Source: Enterobacteria phage vB_EcoM_IME540
Sequence record: MT150133.1
Strand: one strand, 5' to 3'
DNA length: 64,000 nucleotides
Shown: piece after piece, positions 1,784-59,567 of the stretch
Numbering within the stretch: position 1 is the stretch's first letter
Layout: each line of letters opens with the position of its first letter
Position numbers and translations under genes: made by a program
The notes under the pieces: generated by a model
The model's database searches: none
What the model saw: the letters and a program-made list of their open reading frames with translations, nothing else
Told to the model about the DNA's origin: nothing

Positions 1784-2167
1784 TTATTCTAACGTTAGCA
1801 AATACTTAGTCTGGTAAAAGACCCCAGTGATATCGTCCAAAGTCGACTGGATGGCCTTAGGAAGGGTATCATAGATTTTATCAGATGCTTTAAGAAGCTC
1901 GTCAAGAAAATCTACCGGGTCCTTAGGCAAGTCTGAAGCAGACGGTAATGATGCTTTATATTCTTTGCCACTGAACCCGAGATATTGCTCGCTAAATTGG
2001 TCCAGCGGTCCTTGAACTTCTACATAATAGAAGTCATATGCTTTGTGTCTTGCATAGCTTTTGGTTTCTAAATGGGCTGACTTAAAATAGGCTAAAGAAA
2101 CCAGTAGCCAACCAATATAAGAATCCACTTCAGACCCTCGACCGGGTACGAAATCATTGAACTTCAT
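1784..2167 (-). CDS. hypothetical protein (127 aa)
   Basis: Track ORF overlapping the rI stop by 14 nt. Sits where T4 rI.-1 lies (synteny inference only). Confidence 0.6.
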   Translation of the reverse strand: MKFNDFVPGRGSEVDSYIGWLLVSLAYFKSAHLETKSYARHKAYDFYYVEVQGPLDQFSEQYLGFSGKEYKASLPSASDLPKDPVDFLDELLKASDKIYDTLPKAIQSTLDDITGVFYQTKYLLTLE

Positions 2168-2447
2168 CTTCCACCTTCATTAGTTTTGCATAACGCTCTC
2201 CGATGGCGCGACCTTCAATTGAGCACGCTTCTATAGTCCGACAACTTGAAATCTTCCAAGAAGCCGTAACATAGGCCCAATAGTCTTCGGAGGCTTTTAC
2301 GCTGGGTCTACTCATTTGCGCATAAACAGGCATCGCACTACTAGCAAATGCATCCATCAATTTATCGTTGGTACCATTTGCTAGTGAAACTGTAGGGCTT
2401 AAACATCCCGCCATAAGGATACAAGCCGCTGTACGGAAAATATCCAT
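2154..2447 (-). CDS. rI: lysis-inhibition antiholin RI
   Basis: 97 aa, the same length as T4 RI. Has an N-terminal signal-anchor-like segment. The C-terminal part ...SCRTIEACSIEGRAIGERYAKLMKVEDEVQ parallels recalled T4 ...CSSDFECIERGAEMAQSYARIMNIKLETE. Lies next to tk as in T4. Confidence 0.75.
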   Translation of the reverse strand: MDIFRTAACILMAGCLSPTVSLANGTNDKLMDAFASSAMPVYAQMSRPSVKASEDYWAYVTASWKISSCRTIEACSIEGRAIGERYAKLMKVEDEVQ

Positions 2448-2536
2448 ACAAAAGTCCTTTGTTGTTTTATACTATTTGCCTTTCGGCCTTAACCGATAGC
2501 GATTACCAAAAGCTAAAGCTCTACGGTTAGTATTAT

Positions 2537-2544
2537 TATTTATA
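2537..2544 (-). promoter_or_regulatory. candidate late promoter TATAAATA upstream of rI
   Basis: Exact TATAAATA on the minus strand in an ORF-poor gap, 90 nt upstream of the rI ATG. Chance occurrence is possible in AT-rich DNA. Confidence 0.35.
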
Positions 2545-2693
2545 GCTTTTTAAGCTTACGACAATAAGAATAGAACACGTCGTTAAAATTATGCTCAACC
2601 CAATTCCTCTGTATAGGCGAGGTAATGGAAAGCATATAATGCGCTTTAATTAAATCCATCCCATTTTTATTAGGACACTCTTTATTATTAGCA

Positions 2694-2819
2694 TTATACG
2701 TCGCTGCTACAACCTTCTATCTCTCTTTTGTAAGCCACATCATCCATGATAGGCGAAAGAACAATATAAGAAATAGCCACAGCGAACGCTAGAATTAAAA
2801 TCTTTGAATTTAGGTCCAT
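2694..2819 (-). CDS. possible 41-aa membrane peptide
   Basis: MDLNSKILILAFAVAISYIVLSPIMDDVAYKREIEGCSSDV. GAGGG SD lies within the last codons of tk. Has an N-terminal hydrophobic helix. Confidence 0.35.
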   Translation of the reverse strand: MDLNSKILILAFAVAISYIVLSPIMDDVAYKREIEGCSSDV

Positions 2820-2826
2820 AGTACCC

Positions 2827-3399
2827 TCAACTCGTTATTTCTATCCAGTGCTTCCTGCACAATGACACGTAAGAATCGTTGCCACCTATAGAAACTTGGG
2901 CTCCGTCCTTAATTGCGATACCATCTTGGATACGAGCCGTCATAGTAGCTTTACGGCCGCAATGGCACACACCTTTGTACTCAACGAGTTTATCTGCCGT
3001 AGCGAGTAATTCAGCAGAGCCAGGAAACAGTTTACCCTGAAAATCAGTTCTTAGCCCATAACACATAACTGGAACATTATAATTGTCTACTATCTTCGCC
3101 AGTTGTTTTATCTGTGCAGGTTCTAAGAACTGTGCTTCATCCACAAATACACAGTGGATATCTTTTTGAGATTCAGCCCAACGATAGAACTCGTATAGGT
3201 CCATATCCGGAGTCACGGCATTAGCCTCTTGACTAATCCCTATACGAGACGAAATGCTATGGCTTGATTCTCTATTGTCTACCGCGGGCTTTAAAAGGAG
3301 TACGCCCATACCACGTTCTTTGTAGTTATGAGCTGCCGTTAGCAATGAAGCGGTTTTCCCGGAATTCATCGCCGCATAGTGAAACATCAAGCTTGCCAT
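2827..3399 (-). CDS. tk: thymidine kinase
   Basis: 190 aa. P-loop MNSGKTASLL, VFVDEAQF, and a C-terminal Cys cluster CHCGRKAT...SLCRKH. Matches the T4 Tk pattern and position. Confidence 0.92.
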   Translation of the reverse strand: MASLMFHYAAMNSGKTASLLTAAHNYKERGMGVLLLKPAVDNRESSHSISSRIGISQEANAVTPDMDLYEFYRWAESQKDIHCVFVDEAQFLEPAQIKQLAKIVDNYNVPVMCYGLRTDFQGKLFPGSAELLATADKLVEYKGVCHCGRKATMTARIQDGIAIKDGAQVSIGGNDSYVSLCRKHWIEITS

Positions 3400-7063: not shown

Positions 7064-7106
7064 TCTCCTGTAGTTGATAGGTCTATAGTACCACGTCTAC
7101 AGGAGA
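7064..7106 (-). promoter_or_regulatory. 10-bp inverted repeat pairing the promoter spacer with the regB Shine-Dalgarno
   Basis: Minus strand TCTCCTGTAG (just after the -35) ... CTACAGGAGA (SD, 7 nt before the ATG). The loop holds the -10 and the start site. Confidence 0.7.
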
Positions 7107-7113
7107 TGTAAAC
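7085..7113 (-). promoter_or_regulatory. early promoter (GTTTAC -17 nt- TGGTACTAT)
   Basis: GTTTACATCTCCTGTAGACGTGGTACTATAGACCTATCAAC upstream of regB, with the conserved 15-mer. Confidence 0.75.
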
Positions 7114-9559: not shown

Positions 9560-9602
9560 ATCTCCTGTAGTTGATAGGTCTATAGTATCATGCCTACAGG
9601 AG
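9560..9602 (-). promoter_or_regulatory. 10-bp inverted repeat pairing the promoter spacer with the denV Shine-Dalgarno
   Basis: Minus strand GTTTACA-TCTCCTGTAG-GCATGATACTATAGACCTATCAA-CTACAGGAGA-TTAAAAAATG. The arms are perfect. Confidence 0.7.
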
Positions 9603-9609
9603 ATGTAAA
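9581..9609 (-). promoter_or_regulatory. early promoter (GTTTAC -17 nt- TGATACTAT)
   Basis: Conserved 15-mer present. Drives denV. Confidence 0.75.
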
Positions 9610-9610
9610 C

Positions 9611-55026: not shown

Positions 55027-56586
55027 ATGAAAAAGAATGCATTAGTTCAAAAATGGTCCGCTCTGCTGGAAAACGAAGCCCTTCCTGAAATCGTGGGTGC
55101 TTCTAAACAAGCTATCATTGCTAAAATTTTCGAAAACCAGGAACAAGATATTCTGACCGCTCCTGAATACCGTGACGAAAAAATCTCCGAAGCATTTGGT
55201 TCTTTCCTGACCGAAGCTGAAATTGGCGGTGACCACGGTTATGATGCTACCAATATCGCAGCTGGCCAGACTTCTGGTGCTGTAACTCAGATTGGGCCGG
55301 CAGTAATGGGTATGGTTCGTCGTGCTATTCCTCATCTGATTGCTTTTGATATTTGTGGTGTTCAGCCTCTGAATAACCCTACCGGCCAGGTATTTGCCCT
55401 TCGTGCAGTTTATGGTAAAGACCCTATCGCTGCTGGCGCTAAAGAAGCTTTCCATCCGATGTATTCTCCGGACGCTATGTTCTCTGGTCAGGGCGCTGCT
55501 GAAACTTTCGAAGCACTGGCTGCAAGCAAAGTTCTGGAAGTTGGTAAAATTTATTCTCACTTCTTCGAAGCTACCGGTGCTGCACACTTCCAGGCTGTTG
55601 AAGCCGTAACCGTTGATGCTGCTGCTACTGATGCCGCTAAACTGGATGCTGCTATTACCGCTTTGATTGAAGCTGGTAAGTTGGCTGAATTGGCTGAAGG
55701 TATGGCTACTTCTATCGCTGAACTTCAGGAAGGCTTTAACGGTTCCCAGGACAACCCGTGGAACGAAATGGGCTTCCGCATCGACAAACAAGTTATCGAA
55801 GCTAAATCCCGTCAGCTGAAAGCAAGCTATTCTATCGAACTGGCACAGGACCTTCGTGCAGTACACGGTATGGATGCAGATGCTGAACTGTCCGGTATCC
55901 TTGCTACCGAAATTATGCTCGAAATCAACCGTGAAGTTATCGATTGGATTAACTACTCTGCACAGGTTGGTAAATCTGGTATGACCAACACCGTTGGCGC
56001 TAAAGCTGGTGTGTTTGACTTCCAGGACCCGATTGATATCCGTGGTGCTCGTTGGGCCGGTGAGAGCTTTAAAGCCCTTCTGTTCCAGATTGATAAAGAA
56101 GCAGCCGAAATCGCTCGTCAGACCGGTCGTGGTGCTGGTAACTTCATCATCGCTTCCCGTAACGTAGTTAACGTACTGGCTGCAGTTGATACTTCTGTAA
56201 GTTATGCAGCTCAAGGTCTGGGTCAAGGTTTCAACGTTGACACAACCAAAGCAGTATTTGCCGGTGTTCTTGGTGGTAAATATCGCGTTTACATCGACCA
56301 GTATGCACGTTCCGATTACTTCACCATCGGTTATAAAGGCGCTAACGAAATGGACGCAGGTATCTACTATGCTCCGTACGTTGCACTGACCCCGCTGCGT
56401 GGTTCCGATCCGAAGAACTTCCAACCGGTAATGGGCTTCAAAACTCGTTACGGTATCGGTATCAACCCGTTCGCTGACCCGTCTGCACAGGCTCCTACCA
56501 AACGTATTCAGAGCGGTATGCCTGACATCGTTAACAGCCTTGGTCTGAATGGTTACTTCCGTCGCGTATATGTTAAAGGTATCTAA
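55027..56586 (+). CDS. 23: gp23 major capsid protein precursor
   Basis: 519 aa (T4 521). Long matching stretches to recalled T4 gp23, including AIIAKIFENQE, GSFLTEAEIGGDHGY and the C-terminal FRRVYVKGI. Confidence 0.98.
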   Translation: MKKNALVQKWSALLENEALPEIVGASKQAIIAKIFENQEQDILTAPEYRDEKISEAFGSFLTEAEIGGDHGYDATNIAAGQTSGAVTQIGPAVMGMVRRAIPHLIAFDICGVQPLNNPTGQVFALRAVYGKDPIAAGAKEAFHPMYSPDAMFSGQGAAETFEALAASKVLEVGKIYSHFFEATGAAHFQAVEAVTVDAAATDAAKLDAAITALIEAGKLAELAEGMATSIAELQEGFNGSQDNPWNEMGFRIDKQVIEAKSRQLKASYSIELAQDLRAVHGMDADAELSGILATEIMLEINREVIDWINYSAQVGKSGMTNTVGAKAGVFDFQDPIDIRGARWAGESFKALLFQIDKEAAEIARQTGRGAGNFIIASRNVVNVLAAVDTSVSYAAQGLGQGFNVDTTKAVFAGVLGGKYRVYIDQYARSDYFTIGYKGANEMDAGIYYAPYVALTPLRGSDPKNFQPVMGFKTRYGIGINPFADPSAQAPTKRIQSGMPDIVNSLGLNGYFRRVYVKGI

Positions 56587-56602
56587 GATATAACCTTATT
56601 AT

Positions 56603-56632
56603 GGGAGACTTCGGTCTCCCATTCTTGTTTCT
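56603..56632 (+). terminator. rho-independent terminator after gene 23
   Basis: GGGAGAC-TTCG-GTCTCCC followed by ATTCTTGTTTCTG. Also sits just downstream of the convergent minus-strand ORF. Confidence 0.75.
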
Positions 56633-56635
56633 GTA

Positions 56636-56902
56636 TTATGCAATCTTAACTCGGCGGTTGATGATATCACGGAAGTCAATACGATTTTCTTGGATTTTCA
56701 GCCAGTTACCAGATTTGTCTTTGGTATGGGTAGAGTATTCACCGTTCCACCAGAAGTCGGTAGCATAAGCCATGGCTTCGTATTTCTTAACTAAGGCATT
56801 CACTGCATTACCATTAGGATTGTTACCGAATTTTTCTACCAGAGCTTTGATGTCTTTATCAAGAGCGGAAAGAGTAGTACGAATAAAGTTTAACTTGTTC
56901 AT
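56636..56902 (-). CDS. hypothetical early protein (88 aa) antisense to the late cluster
   Basis: Trimmed to ATG 56902 (GAGGAG SD). Has its own early promoter at 56932-56961. MNKLNFIRTTLSALDKDIKALVEKFG... No family recognised. Confidence 0.6.
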   Translation of the reverse strand: MNKLNFIRTTLSALDKDIKALVEKFGNNPNGNAVNALVKKYEAMAYATDFWWNGEYSTHTKDKSGNWLKIQENRIDFRDIINRRVKIA

Positions 56903-56931
56903 TTTTAATCTCCTCATGTTTTGATAGGTCT

Positions 56932-56961
56932 ATAGTAACATGTGAGAATCTTGCTGTAAAC
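56932..56961 (-). promoter_or_regulatory. early promoter (GTTTAC -18 nt- TGTTACTAT)
   Basis: Conserved 15-mer TACTATAGACCTATC present. Interleaved with the plus-strand late promoter of gene 24. Confidence 0.7.
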
Positions 56962-56967
56962 AACTTT

Positions 56968-56975
56968 TATAAATA
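56968..56975 (+). promoter_or_regulatory. late promoter TATAAATA (gene 24)
   Basis: Exact motif, intergenic, 28 nt before ATG 57004. Confidence 0.75.
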
Positions 56976-57003
56976 AACATATACCCTCAATAAGGAAAGC
57001 GCA

Positions 57004-58287
57004 ATGGCAAAGATTAACGAATTACTGCGCGAGTCAACAACTACTTCCAGCAACTCATTGGGTCGCCCTAATCTTGTTGCTTTGACCCGTGCTACAACCA
57101 AATTGATTTACCGTGATATTATCGCCGAACAACGTACTAGCCAGCCTATTGCTGCACTGTATGGTGTCAAATATCTTACCCCTGATAATGAATTTAGTTT
57201 CCAGACAGGTGCCTCTTATGGTGGTGAAGTTGGTTCTAAAGACCGTGAAACTATCCCAGAACTCACAGATAAGGCCCAGGCGATTGCTCAGGGTGAATAT
57301 TTCAAGTACCAGAATGTGGTTTATAAGGCTCTTAAAGCAAGCCCACTCGCGTCCACTAGCGCCACAGAATTGGCTGATGCTCTTCAAGAAGGTTTAGTGT
57401 CATTAACATGTCGTCTGGTTCCTGATGCTGCCCATACCACTAAATTTGAAGCGAGTGATGTAGAAATCTCTGATGCTGTATTCCAGGTTAATAAATGGAA
57501 TGCTCCGGTTAAGACCCGTAAATTGAAGACGGCTTTGACTGTAGAATTAGCGCAGGATATGGAATCAAATGGCTTTGACGCGCCGGCGTTCTTAGAAGAC
57601 CTCTTGGCTACAGTAATGGCAGATGAAATTAATAAAGACGTTCTGCAATCTCTAATAACCGTATCCAAACGTTATAAAGTTACTGGTGTATCTGATAACG
57701 GCATCATCGATTTGTCTTATGACAGTGCTCCTGAATCTGCACGTAAACTTTATGAACTCGTTTGTGAGATGAATTCTGAAATCCAGAAAACTACTTCTTA
57801 TTCTGGCACGTTTGTTGTGGCTTCAAGTCGTGTGGCTGCAATGCTTGCAGGTTCTGGCTGGTTAAAACATAAACCCGAAGATAATAATTGGCTTCCGGAA
57901 ACTGCATACGGATATTTGTTGAATGGTCTGCCTCTGTTTTGTGACGTTAACAGTCCATTAGATTATGTTACCGTTGGTGTTAAAGAGAATTACGGCGGTA
58001 ATGAAGTTGTCGGTTCTATTTTCTACGCTCCCTATACCGAAGGCTTAGATTTAGATGACCAAGAACACGTCGGTGCTTATAAGGTTATTGTTGACCCGGA
58101 TTCATTACAACCTTCTATTTCTCTGATGGTTCGTTATGCACTATCAGCTAACCCGTACACCGTGGCTAAAGACGATAAAGAAGCTCGTGTTATCGATGCA
58201 ACCAATATGGATTTAATGGCTGGACAGAGCAATATGTCTTATCTGGTTGGCGTTAAACTTCCGGCAATTATTTACGAGGCTGATTAA
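57004..58287 (+). CDS. 24: gp24 head vertex protein precursor
   Basis: 427 aa, as in T4. MAKINELLRESTTT..., RKLKTALTVELAQDMESNGFDAP and RYALSANPYTVAKDDKEAR match T4 gp24. Confidence 0.95.
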   Translation: MAKINELLRESTTTSSNSLGRPNLVALTRATTKLIYRDIIAEQRTSQPIAALYGVKYLTPDNEFSFQTGASYGGEVGSKDRETIPELTDKAQAIAQGEYFKYQNVVYKALKASPLASTSATELADALQEGLVSLTCRLVPDAAHTTKFEASDVEISDAVFQVNKWNAPVKTRKLKTALTVELAQDMESNGFDAPAFLEDLLATVMADEINKDVLQSLITVSKRYKVTGVSDNGIIDLSYDSAPESARKLYELVCEMNSEIQKTTSYSGTFVVASSRVAAMLAGSGWLKHKPEDNNWLPETAYGYLLNGLPLFCDVNSPLDYVTVGVKENYGGNEVVGSIFYAPYTEGLDLDDQEHVGAYKVIVDPDSLQPSISLMVRYALSANPYTVAKDDKEARVIDATNMDLMAGQSNMSYLVGVKLPAIIYEAD

Positions 58288-59567
58288 TGTCTAAGATTGT
58301 AGACCTAATTAAAGAATCCACATTGACGGCTGCCAGCTCGGTTGGCCGTCCTGCTCTTCTTTCATACACCCAAGCAACTAATAAACGAATCTTTAAAGCC
58401 CTAGTTGCTGAACAAAAAACAAATCAACCGGTTGCTGCTCTGTATGGGGTACGTGTACTGAATCCTGACGACAAAATGACTTATCTTGGTGGAGCAACAT
58501 TTGCGGGCCAGATTGGTATGACGGAACGTGAAAATATTCCAGAATTTACTGATTCATCTACAGCTTATGCGGTCGGTGATATGTTCCAGTTTGAAAGCGT
58601 AGTGTTTAAAGTTCTAGAAGCATCTCCTTTCGCCGGAACCACAGAAACCAACCTCAGCGAAGTTATTTCTGAAGCAGTGGCAGCCGGCCATATCCGTATG
58701 GCGTCGGATGCTGCTATTACTTCTAAATTTGAACAAGGCCATCCTGAAATTGCTGAAACCGGATTCCGTATCGACAAATGGCAATCTGAAGTTAAATCGC
58801 GTAAACTGAAAACTTCATTGACAGTCGAATTAGCCCAAGACCTAGAATCTAACGGGTTTAATGCTCCTAATTTCGTTGAAAATCTGCTAGGCATTCAAAT
58901 GGCAGAAGAAATTAATAAGGATGTATTACAGTCATTAATTACCGTGAGCTCTCGTTTTAAAGTCCAGGGTGTTTCTGAAAAGGGTGTATTAGACCTTACC
59001 AACCCTCGCTACGATAATGCCCAGGACCGTGCTCGCACATTATATTATTATATGTGTGAGATGAACTCTGCCGTCCAACGACAGACTTCTTTTGCCGGGA
59101 CTTATGCAGTAGCTAGTTCTCGTTGTGCTGCTATTCTCGCCGCCTCTGGTTGGGTTGAGAAAAAGGAAGACCAGGACGAATTGGCTTATGGTATATTAAA
59201 GAATGGCCTACCACTTTATGCTGATATGAATAGTCCATGTGATTATGTTATTGTTGGTGTAAATGCCCAGATGGGTGAAGGACAGACGGTCGCATCTTTA
59301 TATTATGCGCCTTATACGGAAGGTTTGAATGTGGTTGACGAAGAAGGTGATACTTCAGTTGGTGAATTTAAGGTTATTGTTGACCCGGAAAGCTTACAAC
59401 CTACAGTAGCATTGCTTGCTCGTTATGCATTGACTGCAAACCCTTATACCGTCGCTAAGGACGATAAAGAAGCCCGCATTATTGATGGTTCTGATATGGA
59501 CAAAATGGCTAATCAAAGTCAATTGAGTTCTTATCTCGGCGTAAAATTACCGCCTTTAGAAAAATAA
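58287..59567 (+). CDS. second gp24-family vertex protein paralogue
   Basis: 426 aa, collinear with the upstream gp24; roughly half the positions are identical by eye. Keeps the propeptide MSKIVDLIKE|S and RKLKTSLTVELAQDLESNGFNAP. TAATG junction. Confidence 0.85.
   Translation: MSKIVDLIKESTLTAASSVGRPALLSYTQATNKRIFKALVAEQKTNQPVAALYGVRVLNPDDKMTYLGGATFAGQIGMTERENIPEFTDSSTAYAVGDMFQFESVVFKVLEASPFAGTTETNLSEVISEAVAAGHIRMASDAAITSKFEQGHPEIAETGFRIDKWQSEVKSRKLKTSLTVELAQDLESNGFNAPNFVENLLGIQMAEEINKDVLQSLITVSSRFKVQGVSEKGVLDLTNPRYDNAQDRARTLYYYMCEMNSAVQRQTSFAGTYAVASSRCAAILAASGWVEKKEDQDELAYGILKNGLPLYADMNSPCDYVIVGVNAQMGEGQTVASLYYAPYTEGLNVVDEEGDTSVGEFKVIVDPESLQPTVALLARYALTANPYTVAKDDKEARIIDGSDMDKMANQSQLSSYLGVKLPPLEK

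Follow-up and report, generated by a model that had tools for sequence, protein, structure and literature searches.

Between the genes for the major capsid protein (gene 23) and the capsid vertex protein (gene 24) of Enterobacteria phage vB_EcoM_IME540 lies a minus-strand unit of 332 bp, comprising a small open reading frame (ORF), its GAGGAG Shine-Dalgarno (SD) sequence, and an early-type promoter. The window analysed here is a stretch of 64,000 nucleotides of this genome (record MT150133.1), the source of which is a JS98-like (Dhakavirus) T4-type phage that is strictly lytic. Positions 56300-57300 are 99.2-99.6% identical to the ten best-matching phage records (among them Escherichia phages LHE83, PSD2002, QL01, and Bp7) and 95.5% identical to JS98 (Dhakavirus, Straboviridae). 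The features of the locus are as follows:

55027..56586, plus strand: gene 23, major capsid protein, 519 aa; annotated as gp23 in relatives such as JS98; flanks the slot on the left
56601..56632, plus strand: intrinsic terminator of gene 23, with a 9-bp stem and UUCG loop (56601-56622) ahead of a T-rich tail; bounds the module on the left
56636..56902, minus strand: 88-aa ORF including its stop codon, starting MNKLNF; member of phrog_6003, called by homology and dN/dS
56903..56925, minus strand: predicted 5' leader of ~23 nt, with the start placed at ~56925 by the usual 7-nt rule after the -10
56910..56915, minus strand: SD GAGGAG, 7 nt 5' of the ATG, read from the sequence; contains GGAG
56932..56961, minus strand: T4-type early (sigma-70) promoter, called by motif, repeat copies, and conservation across eight lineages
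56962..56985, minus strand: UP-like region overlapping the plus-strand late promoter, called by conservation; putative function
56968..56975, plus strand: late promoter TATAAATA of gene 24, present in all lineages, empty slots included; right boundary of the module
57004..58287, plus strand: gene 24a, capsid vertex protein, 427 aa; flanks the slot on the right

An initial annotation of the window had called the ORF, its SD, the early promoter, the late promoter, and the hairpin, and each was recovered by us at the same position. Beyond the right flank, a second gene 24 paralogue (24b; 58287-59567) is 55% identical to that at 57004-58287 and directly abuts it, with one base serving as both the end of the 24a stop codon and the beginning of the 24b start codon; this duplication is also annotated in JS98, VR7, and IME08, and not in T4 or PhAPEC2.

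The ORF matches phrog_6003 along its entire length (E = 6.8e-50, residues 1-88 against profile positions 1-88 of 90), a family annotated as hypothetical protein and comprising JS98 orf173c, VR7ORF190c, and RB69ORF188c. Searches by tblastn detected homologues in 233 phage records from at least three genera, and in every T4-type genome or contig examined, i.e., Dhakavirus, Gaprivervirus, and Mosigvirus phages, Yersinia phage P8, and three metagenomic lineages, the ORF occupies the 23-24 gap and is antisense to both genes; its earlier description as an ORFan is thus refuted. Identity to the counterpart in JS98, VR7, and PhAPEC2 is 98%, 64%, and 33%, respectively, with dN/dS values of 0.08-0.13 against JS98, IME08, and VR7, and of 0.29-0.34 against PhAPEC2. 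The initial annotation had held that the absence of coding conservation among relatives would count against its reading; the frame is instead conserved as coding in these relatives, with a dN/dS of about 0.1 that marks it as being under purifying selection, and a chance ORF was ruled out by dN/dS and synteny together. On these comparative grounds, the ORF is a real, conserved protein-coding gene with a predicted 10-kDa product, and an old resident of its lineages rather than a recent insert. It diverges much faster than its neighbours, with 33% identity to PhAPEC2 versus 84% for gp23 and 69% for gp24. A longer 93-aa version from an in-frame ATG at 56917 was rejected, as this start lacks an SD and the homologues, including those of the Mosigvirus type, begin at the methionine of the 88-aa form. 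In phages that carry segD, tblastn matched just residues 1-72 of the ORF; by direct translation, the IME08 ORF is intact to residue 88, with the penultimate residue alone changed (I87A). No paralogue of the ORF was found in the window.

The encoded protein is basic (pI 9.6), hydrophilic, and soluble by prediction. An AlphaFold2 model built from an 11-sequence alignment (mean pLDDT of 83.6) contains predicted helices at residues 3-25, 31-48, and 77-87, with residues 49-76 forming a loop or short strands. Among the invariant positions are W51, Q71, and an NGNA-x-N motif located in the loop that links helix 1 to helix 2, and G65 is nearly invariant. The sole match in Pfam was to DUF5380 (E = 0.1), with no GIY-YIG domain, and a PADLOC search for defence and anti-defence profiles gave no significant match. 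A sequence profile search of the PDB returned nothing below E = 0.15, Foldseek against the PDB returned nothing at E <= 0.001, and a BFVD fold search returned only a family member. Literature searches on the ORF by name and accession, on transcriptomes of RB69 or T4 that cover the locus, and on "anti-late RNA" gave nothing usable, and no transcript, transcription start site, or protein data for the ORF were encountered in the searchable literature. An exhaustive profile search of 1.84 billion cluster representatives yielded about seven true relatives. Two long repeat proteins (P0017, P0020) were discarded as spurious multi-stretch profile matches, as was a 160-aa metagenomic protein (P0021) that embeds 31 residues of the ORF and is probably the product of a chimeric assembly. 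One true relative is encoded by the Vequintavirinae Acinetobacter phage ABPH49 (contig L007, 4495-4761) among small hypothetical genes and between GC-rich hairpins, and another by a siphovirus-like contig (L020, 6001-6255) between tail genes and a helicase/exonuclease module. As both lie outside the Straboviridae and away from capsid genes, the family behaves as a mobile phage accessory gene.

The promoter upstream of the ORF has a -35 element GTTTAC at 56961-56956 (or, as a sigma-70 hexamer, TTTACA at 56960-55), followed after 18 nt (17 nt from TTTACA) by the -10 hexamer TACTAT at 56937-56932, which is extended by a TG (TGn) at 56940-39. The -10 hexamer in turn opens a 17-mer cassette, TACTATAGACCTATCAA, at 56921-56937. 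Both motifs recur in the window far beyond expectation and exclusively on the minus strand: GTTTAC-N17-19-TAYNAT is found in 9 copies (0.46 expected) and TACTATAGACCTATCAA in 8 (0.24 expected), of which seven map to the early nrdC-tk-vs-e-tRNA region and the eighth to the 23-24 junction. All other copies of either motif fall within the first 22 kb of the window, the counterpart of which in JS98 is the early, hyperplastic nrdC-tk-vs-regB-denV-e-tRNA region. The nine aligned promoters and the 17-mer repeats bear out the proposal that the ORF is preceded by a full copy of the repeated early-promoter cassette of this genome. Two other minus-strand copies (7085-7113 and 9582-9610) show perfect 9-nt complementarity between the spacer CTCCTGTAG and the CTACAGGAG that holds the downstream SD, such that the SD could be masked in transcripts reading through from upstream, but not in those initiated at the promoter itself; this pairing is weak in the copy at 56932-56961.

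When the interval separating the start codons of gene 24 and the ORF was aligned for eight lineages, with T4 included via the region upstream of segD, the late promoter, an AAAGTT-GTTTAC block at the -35, the TG, and the -10 (TAYTAT or CATAAT) were kept in all eight. GGAG-ATG is shared by the seven of these lineages that have the ORF, and spacer and leader vary freely. The element is therefore conserved as a promoter, its activity and timing being predicted from sequence. A MotA-type or late promoter for the ORF was rejected, with no TGCTT box and no minus-strand TATAAATA nearby. The plus-strand late promoter TATAAATA lies 6 bp from the -35 element of the ORF promoter; the motif has 20 copies in the window versus 7.6 expected. 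The predicted leader is unstructured (-0.4 kcal/mol). At the other end of the unit, the ORF stop codon starts 13 nt past the gene 23 hairpin, which folds at -17.6 kcal/mol (z = -3.7) and is preserved by compensatory changes in T4, VR7, and fPS-90. An Rfam scan of 56300-57300 returned no family.

Comparison of the 23-24 junction by a distant-mode search, together with inspection of individual records, revealed four states of the slot. It is (i) empty, i.e., the terminator is followed by about 17 nt and then TATAAATA, in Tequatrovirus fPS-90, many other phages of the T4 genus, Kanagawavirus ZX14, Klebsiella phages, and Edwardsiella phage PEi20; (ii) occupied by the ORF only in the IME540 window, JS98, VR7, and PhAPEC2; (iii) occupied by segD only in T4 and PST; and (iv) occupied by both the ORF and segD in IME08, UP19, LF82-x, and F2, where segD begins 3 nt past the ORF stop codon on the same strand and has no promoter of its own. 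Relative to ZX14, the window carries a 332-bp insert (56636-56967) placed exactly between the shared terminator tail ending in ATTCTTGTTTCTGTA and TATAAATA. The initial annotation had inferred an insertion between genes 23 and 24, and had pointed to segD in the same gap of T4; the empty junctions of related phages, which lack the unit precisely between terminator tail and late promoter, agree with the former, and T4 segD indeed occupies this gap in the same antisense orientation. As empty junctions are also found in more distant genera, the empty state is, by parsimony, probably ancestral, and the phages that have it show that genes 23 and 24 can be expressed without the module.

The contents of the slot have moved between lineages. 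The chimeric intervals 1970-3085 of LF82-7 (L010) and 1095-2215 of F2 (L017) were compared with IME08 (L002) and PhAPEC2 (L004). In LF82-7, genes 23 and 24 are 97-100% identical to those of Mosigvirus PhAPEC2, whereas the ORF and segD are 90-99% identical to Dhakavirus IME08, with 45-58% identity to the ORF of PhAPEC2 itself. One crossover falls exactly at the GAGGAG SD, with Mosigvirus-type sequence upstream and Dhakavirus-type sequence downstream, and the second at the gene 23 3' end and terminator. In F2, the crossover is another one, within the promoter; gene 23 and gene 24 on either side share 96-99% identity with Mosigvirus PhAPEC2, although the record is filed under Tequatrovirus. A count of three genera for the ORF-segD block was thus rejected, the Mosigvirus-like flanks of F2 leaving two backbones. 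Two contigs extend the pattern: one (L012, of P0013) has VR7-like capsid genes (gp23 93%, gp24 91%) around a Mosigvirus-type ORF (62% to PhAPEC2, 29% to VR7), and the other (L015, of P0005) has a gp23 90% identical to that of T4 next to a Dhakavirus-type ORF (73%). In both, ORF type is discordant with the capsid backbone, i.e., the slot has been reshuffled even without segD. The cassette-mediated movement suggested by the initial annotation thus finds support in LF82-7, F2, and both contigs, where the module has passed from one lineage to another by recombination within its conserved flanks, i.e., the promoter/SD and the terminator. Module swapping of this kind has been described for the promoter-early stem-loop (PeSL) cassettes of T4-type phages (Arbiol et al. 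2010, PMC2839356; Comeau et al. 2014, PMC4122927), and co-conversion of flanking markers for free-standing homing endonucleases (PMC2988022).

The unit shares with PeSLs a repeated, conserved early promoter followed by an SD and ATG, ahead of a small gene of unknown function, as well as recombination in the conserved motif that swaps the flanked gene, and it marks insertion, deletion, or replacement differences between relatives. The ORF promoter matches the T4/PST PeSL promoter consensus, TTTACW-N17-TAYWAT (PMC4122927), and has an A/T-rich upstream region as well. The stem-loop part, however, is weak here: the arms around the -10 (13 nt) are 77% complementary, and the fold (-11.8 kcal/mol, z = -1.16) was equalled by 30 of 200 shuffles. 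A further difference is that the second homology arm is the gene 23 terminator, not another PeSL. A few PeSLs sit inside virion modules beside unknown genes, and the 23-24 locus of JS98-type phages is not described in the two PeSL papers, which mention JS98 for the gene 43 region only (PMC2839356, PMC4122927).

In T4, the gap between genes 23 and 24 houses segD, which encodes a free-standing homing endonuclease of the GIY-YIG type (Edgell et al. 2010, PMC2988022). It shares with the ORF the slot, the antisense orientation, and the flanking terminator hairpin and late promoter, but the ORF has no GIY-YIG domain, is 88 aa long versus about 220 aa for SegD, and is missing from T4. No promoter for segD was found in T4 according to the same review, which lists no endonuclease-specific promoter of the early class in this phage (PMC2988022). 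Upstream of T4 segD (L003 7234-7326, minus strand), we find ATTTACA-N17-TATTAT with a TGn, aligned to the ORF early promoter; this is a promoter-like site, compared with the full consensus early promoter at the ORF. In IME08-type phages, segD follows immediately after the ORF and its consensus early promoter; the SegD protein of IME08 shares 56% identity with that of T4.

The arrangement also recalls the lambdoid morons, which, as reportedly defined by Hendrix and colleagues, consist of an autonomous promoter, a small gene, and a terminator between adjacent late genes. Like these, the ORF unit lies between two late genes, is absent from close relatives, and is predicted to be independently transcribed. 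A typical moron is expressed in the prophage state, to the advantage of the lysogen; here, the phage is lytic, the promoter is of the T4 early class, and the terminator is borrowed from gene 23. Similarities to two aspects of T4 gene expression are more putative in nature: cleavage as in RegB-sensitive early genes may be anticipated from the GGAG within the GAGGAG SD, and a predicted early ORF transcript would oppose late genes as T4 "anti-late" RNA does. Next to these systems, the ORF unit is an ordinary one, a cassette with an early accessory gene that occupies a plastic slot among the late head genes.

The four slot states, together with ORF alleles that do not track the capsid backbone, point to a moron-like or PeSL-like early accessory module, and we consider it likely that 56636-56967 is a self-contained module of this type in a recombination-prone 23-24 slot. 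By analogy with T4, unmodified host sigma-70 RNA polymerase would transcribe the ORF from the minus strand in the first minutes of infection, and the short unstructured leader would allow efficient translation. The presumed reliance of the promoter on its -35 and UP-like region suggests that it would be silenced by Alt/Mod ADP-ribosylation and AsiA, i.e., that remodelling of the polymerase would shut the early promoter off. T4 RegB cleaves the GGAG motif in early mRNAs; regB is annotated in JS98, and the enzyme may also cut the GGAG of the ORF SD. Later, polymerase with gp55/gp33/gp45 would use TATAAATA, 6 bp away, for gene 24, so that the two promoters would be separated in time rather than in competition. 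The ORF transcript would run into the gene 23 hairpin, a non-canonical terminator in the minus direction.

This last step bears on an alternative explanation, in which the unit acts mainly at the level of RNA or transcription, with antisense pairing or interference delaying or tuning gp23 and gp24 through early read-through into gene 23 antisense and occupation of the gene 24 late promoter region. The promoters are indeed tightly interleaved, with the -35 element close to TATAAATA and the UP-like region overlapping it, and this back-to-back arrangement is kept in eight lineages, including the region upstream of T4 segD. In the minus direction, the hairpin lacks a U-run (its tail being AUAAUAAGG), and our scan called a plus-strand terminator only; as most lineages likewise have no minus-strand U-run, early transcripts may enter gene 23 antisense, and early "anti-late" RNA is a classical T4 observation. 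In VR7 alone, however, U-runs on both sides of the hairpin make a canonical bidirectional terminator, which argues that read-through is not a conserved feature. Moreover, purifying selection on the protein (dN/dS about 0.1) would be needless for a function of RNA only, numerous relatives keep this terminator and late promoter around an empty slot, and T4 early and late promoters are served by differently modified polymerases at different times. A primarily RNA-level role thus seems to us improbable.

Similarly little credence is given to the ORF being functionally tied to segD, whether as helper, regulator, or provider of an early promoter, with the pair forming one mobile element. This would fit the promoterless segD placed 3 nt past the ORF stop on the same strand in IME08, LF82-x, F2, and UP19, the transfer of both genes as a block into Mosigvirus backbones, and the situation in T4, where segD fills this slot and is preceded by a homologous promoter-like sequence. 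The ORF, though, comes without segD in most phages that carry it, the IME540 window included, T4 has segD without the ORF, ORF alleles have been exchanged without segD as well, and co-conversion of flanking markers during homing suffices to explain joint transfer (PMC2988022). A role of the protein in head assembly or the virion, e.g., as a chaperone or minor head protein, might be read from its constant position between genes 23 and 24 in T4-type phages, and from the two gp24 paralogues that carriers often possess. This is very improbable in our view given the opposite orientation and early-type promoter of the ORF, without late or MotA-type motifs on its strand, its presence in PhAPEC2 next to a single gene 24, homologues in unrelated phages away from capsid genes, and close relatives that have near-identical capsid genes and no ORF.

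We thus return to the early accessory module. Its timing, size, charge, rapid divergence, and patchy distribution suggest that the protein may serve a dispensable early function in host interaction, i.e., host takeover or counter-defence, an assignment that we make tentatively. In a bolder version, which we regard as unlikely, the 10-kDa early protein would be a new host-takeover or counter-defence effector with segD as its gene drive: segD, immediately downstream, would borrow the early promoter of the ORF, and its homing would drag the Dhakavirus-type ORF into other T-even lineages, replacing the divergent resident allele. If true, early-promoter control of a Seg endonuclease would differ from the situation in T4.

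In itself, the gene is of little consequence, having long been annotated as hypothetical in JS98-, VR7-, and RB69-type genomes, and its architecture agrees with published ideas on PeSL cassettes, morons, and the segD slot; what interest remains lies in well-documented modular exchange and in an uncharacterised protein. A small, conserved, dispensable family with predicted early expression has the typical profile of an unexplored host-interaction gene. Ultimately, the locus provides a clean natural case of modular exchange inside a core late operon, with four allelic states and crossovers that can be mapped to the terminator hairpin and the promoter/SD cassette, and in which a homing endonuclease, in crossing between genera, has taken along the cargo gene next to it.
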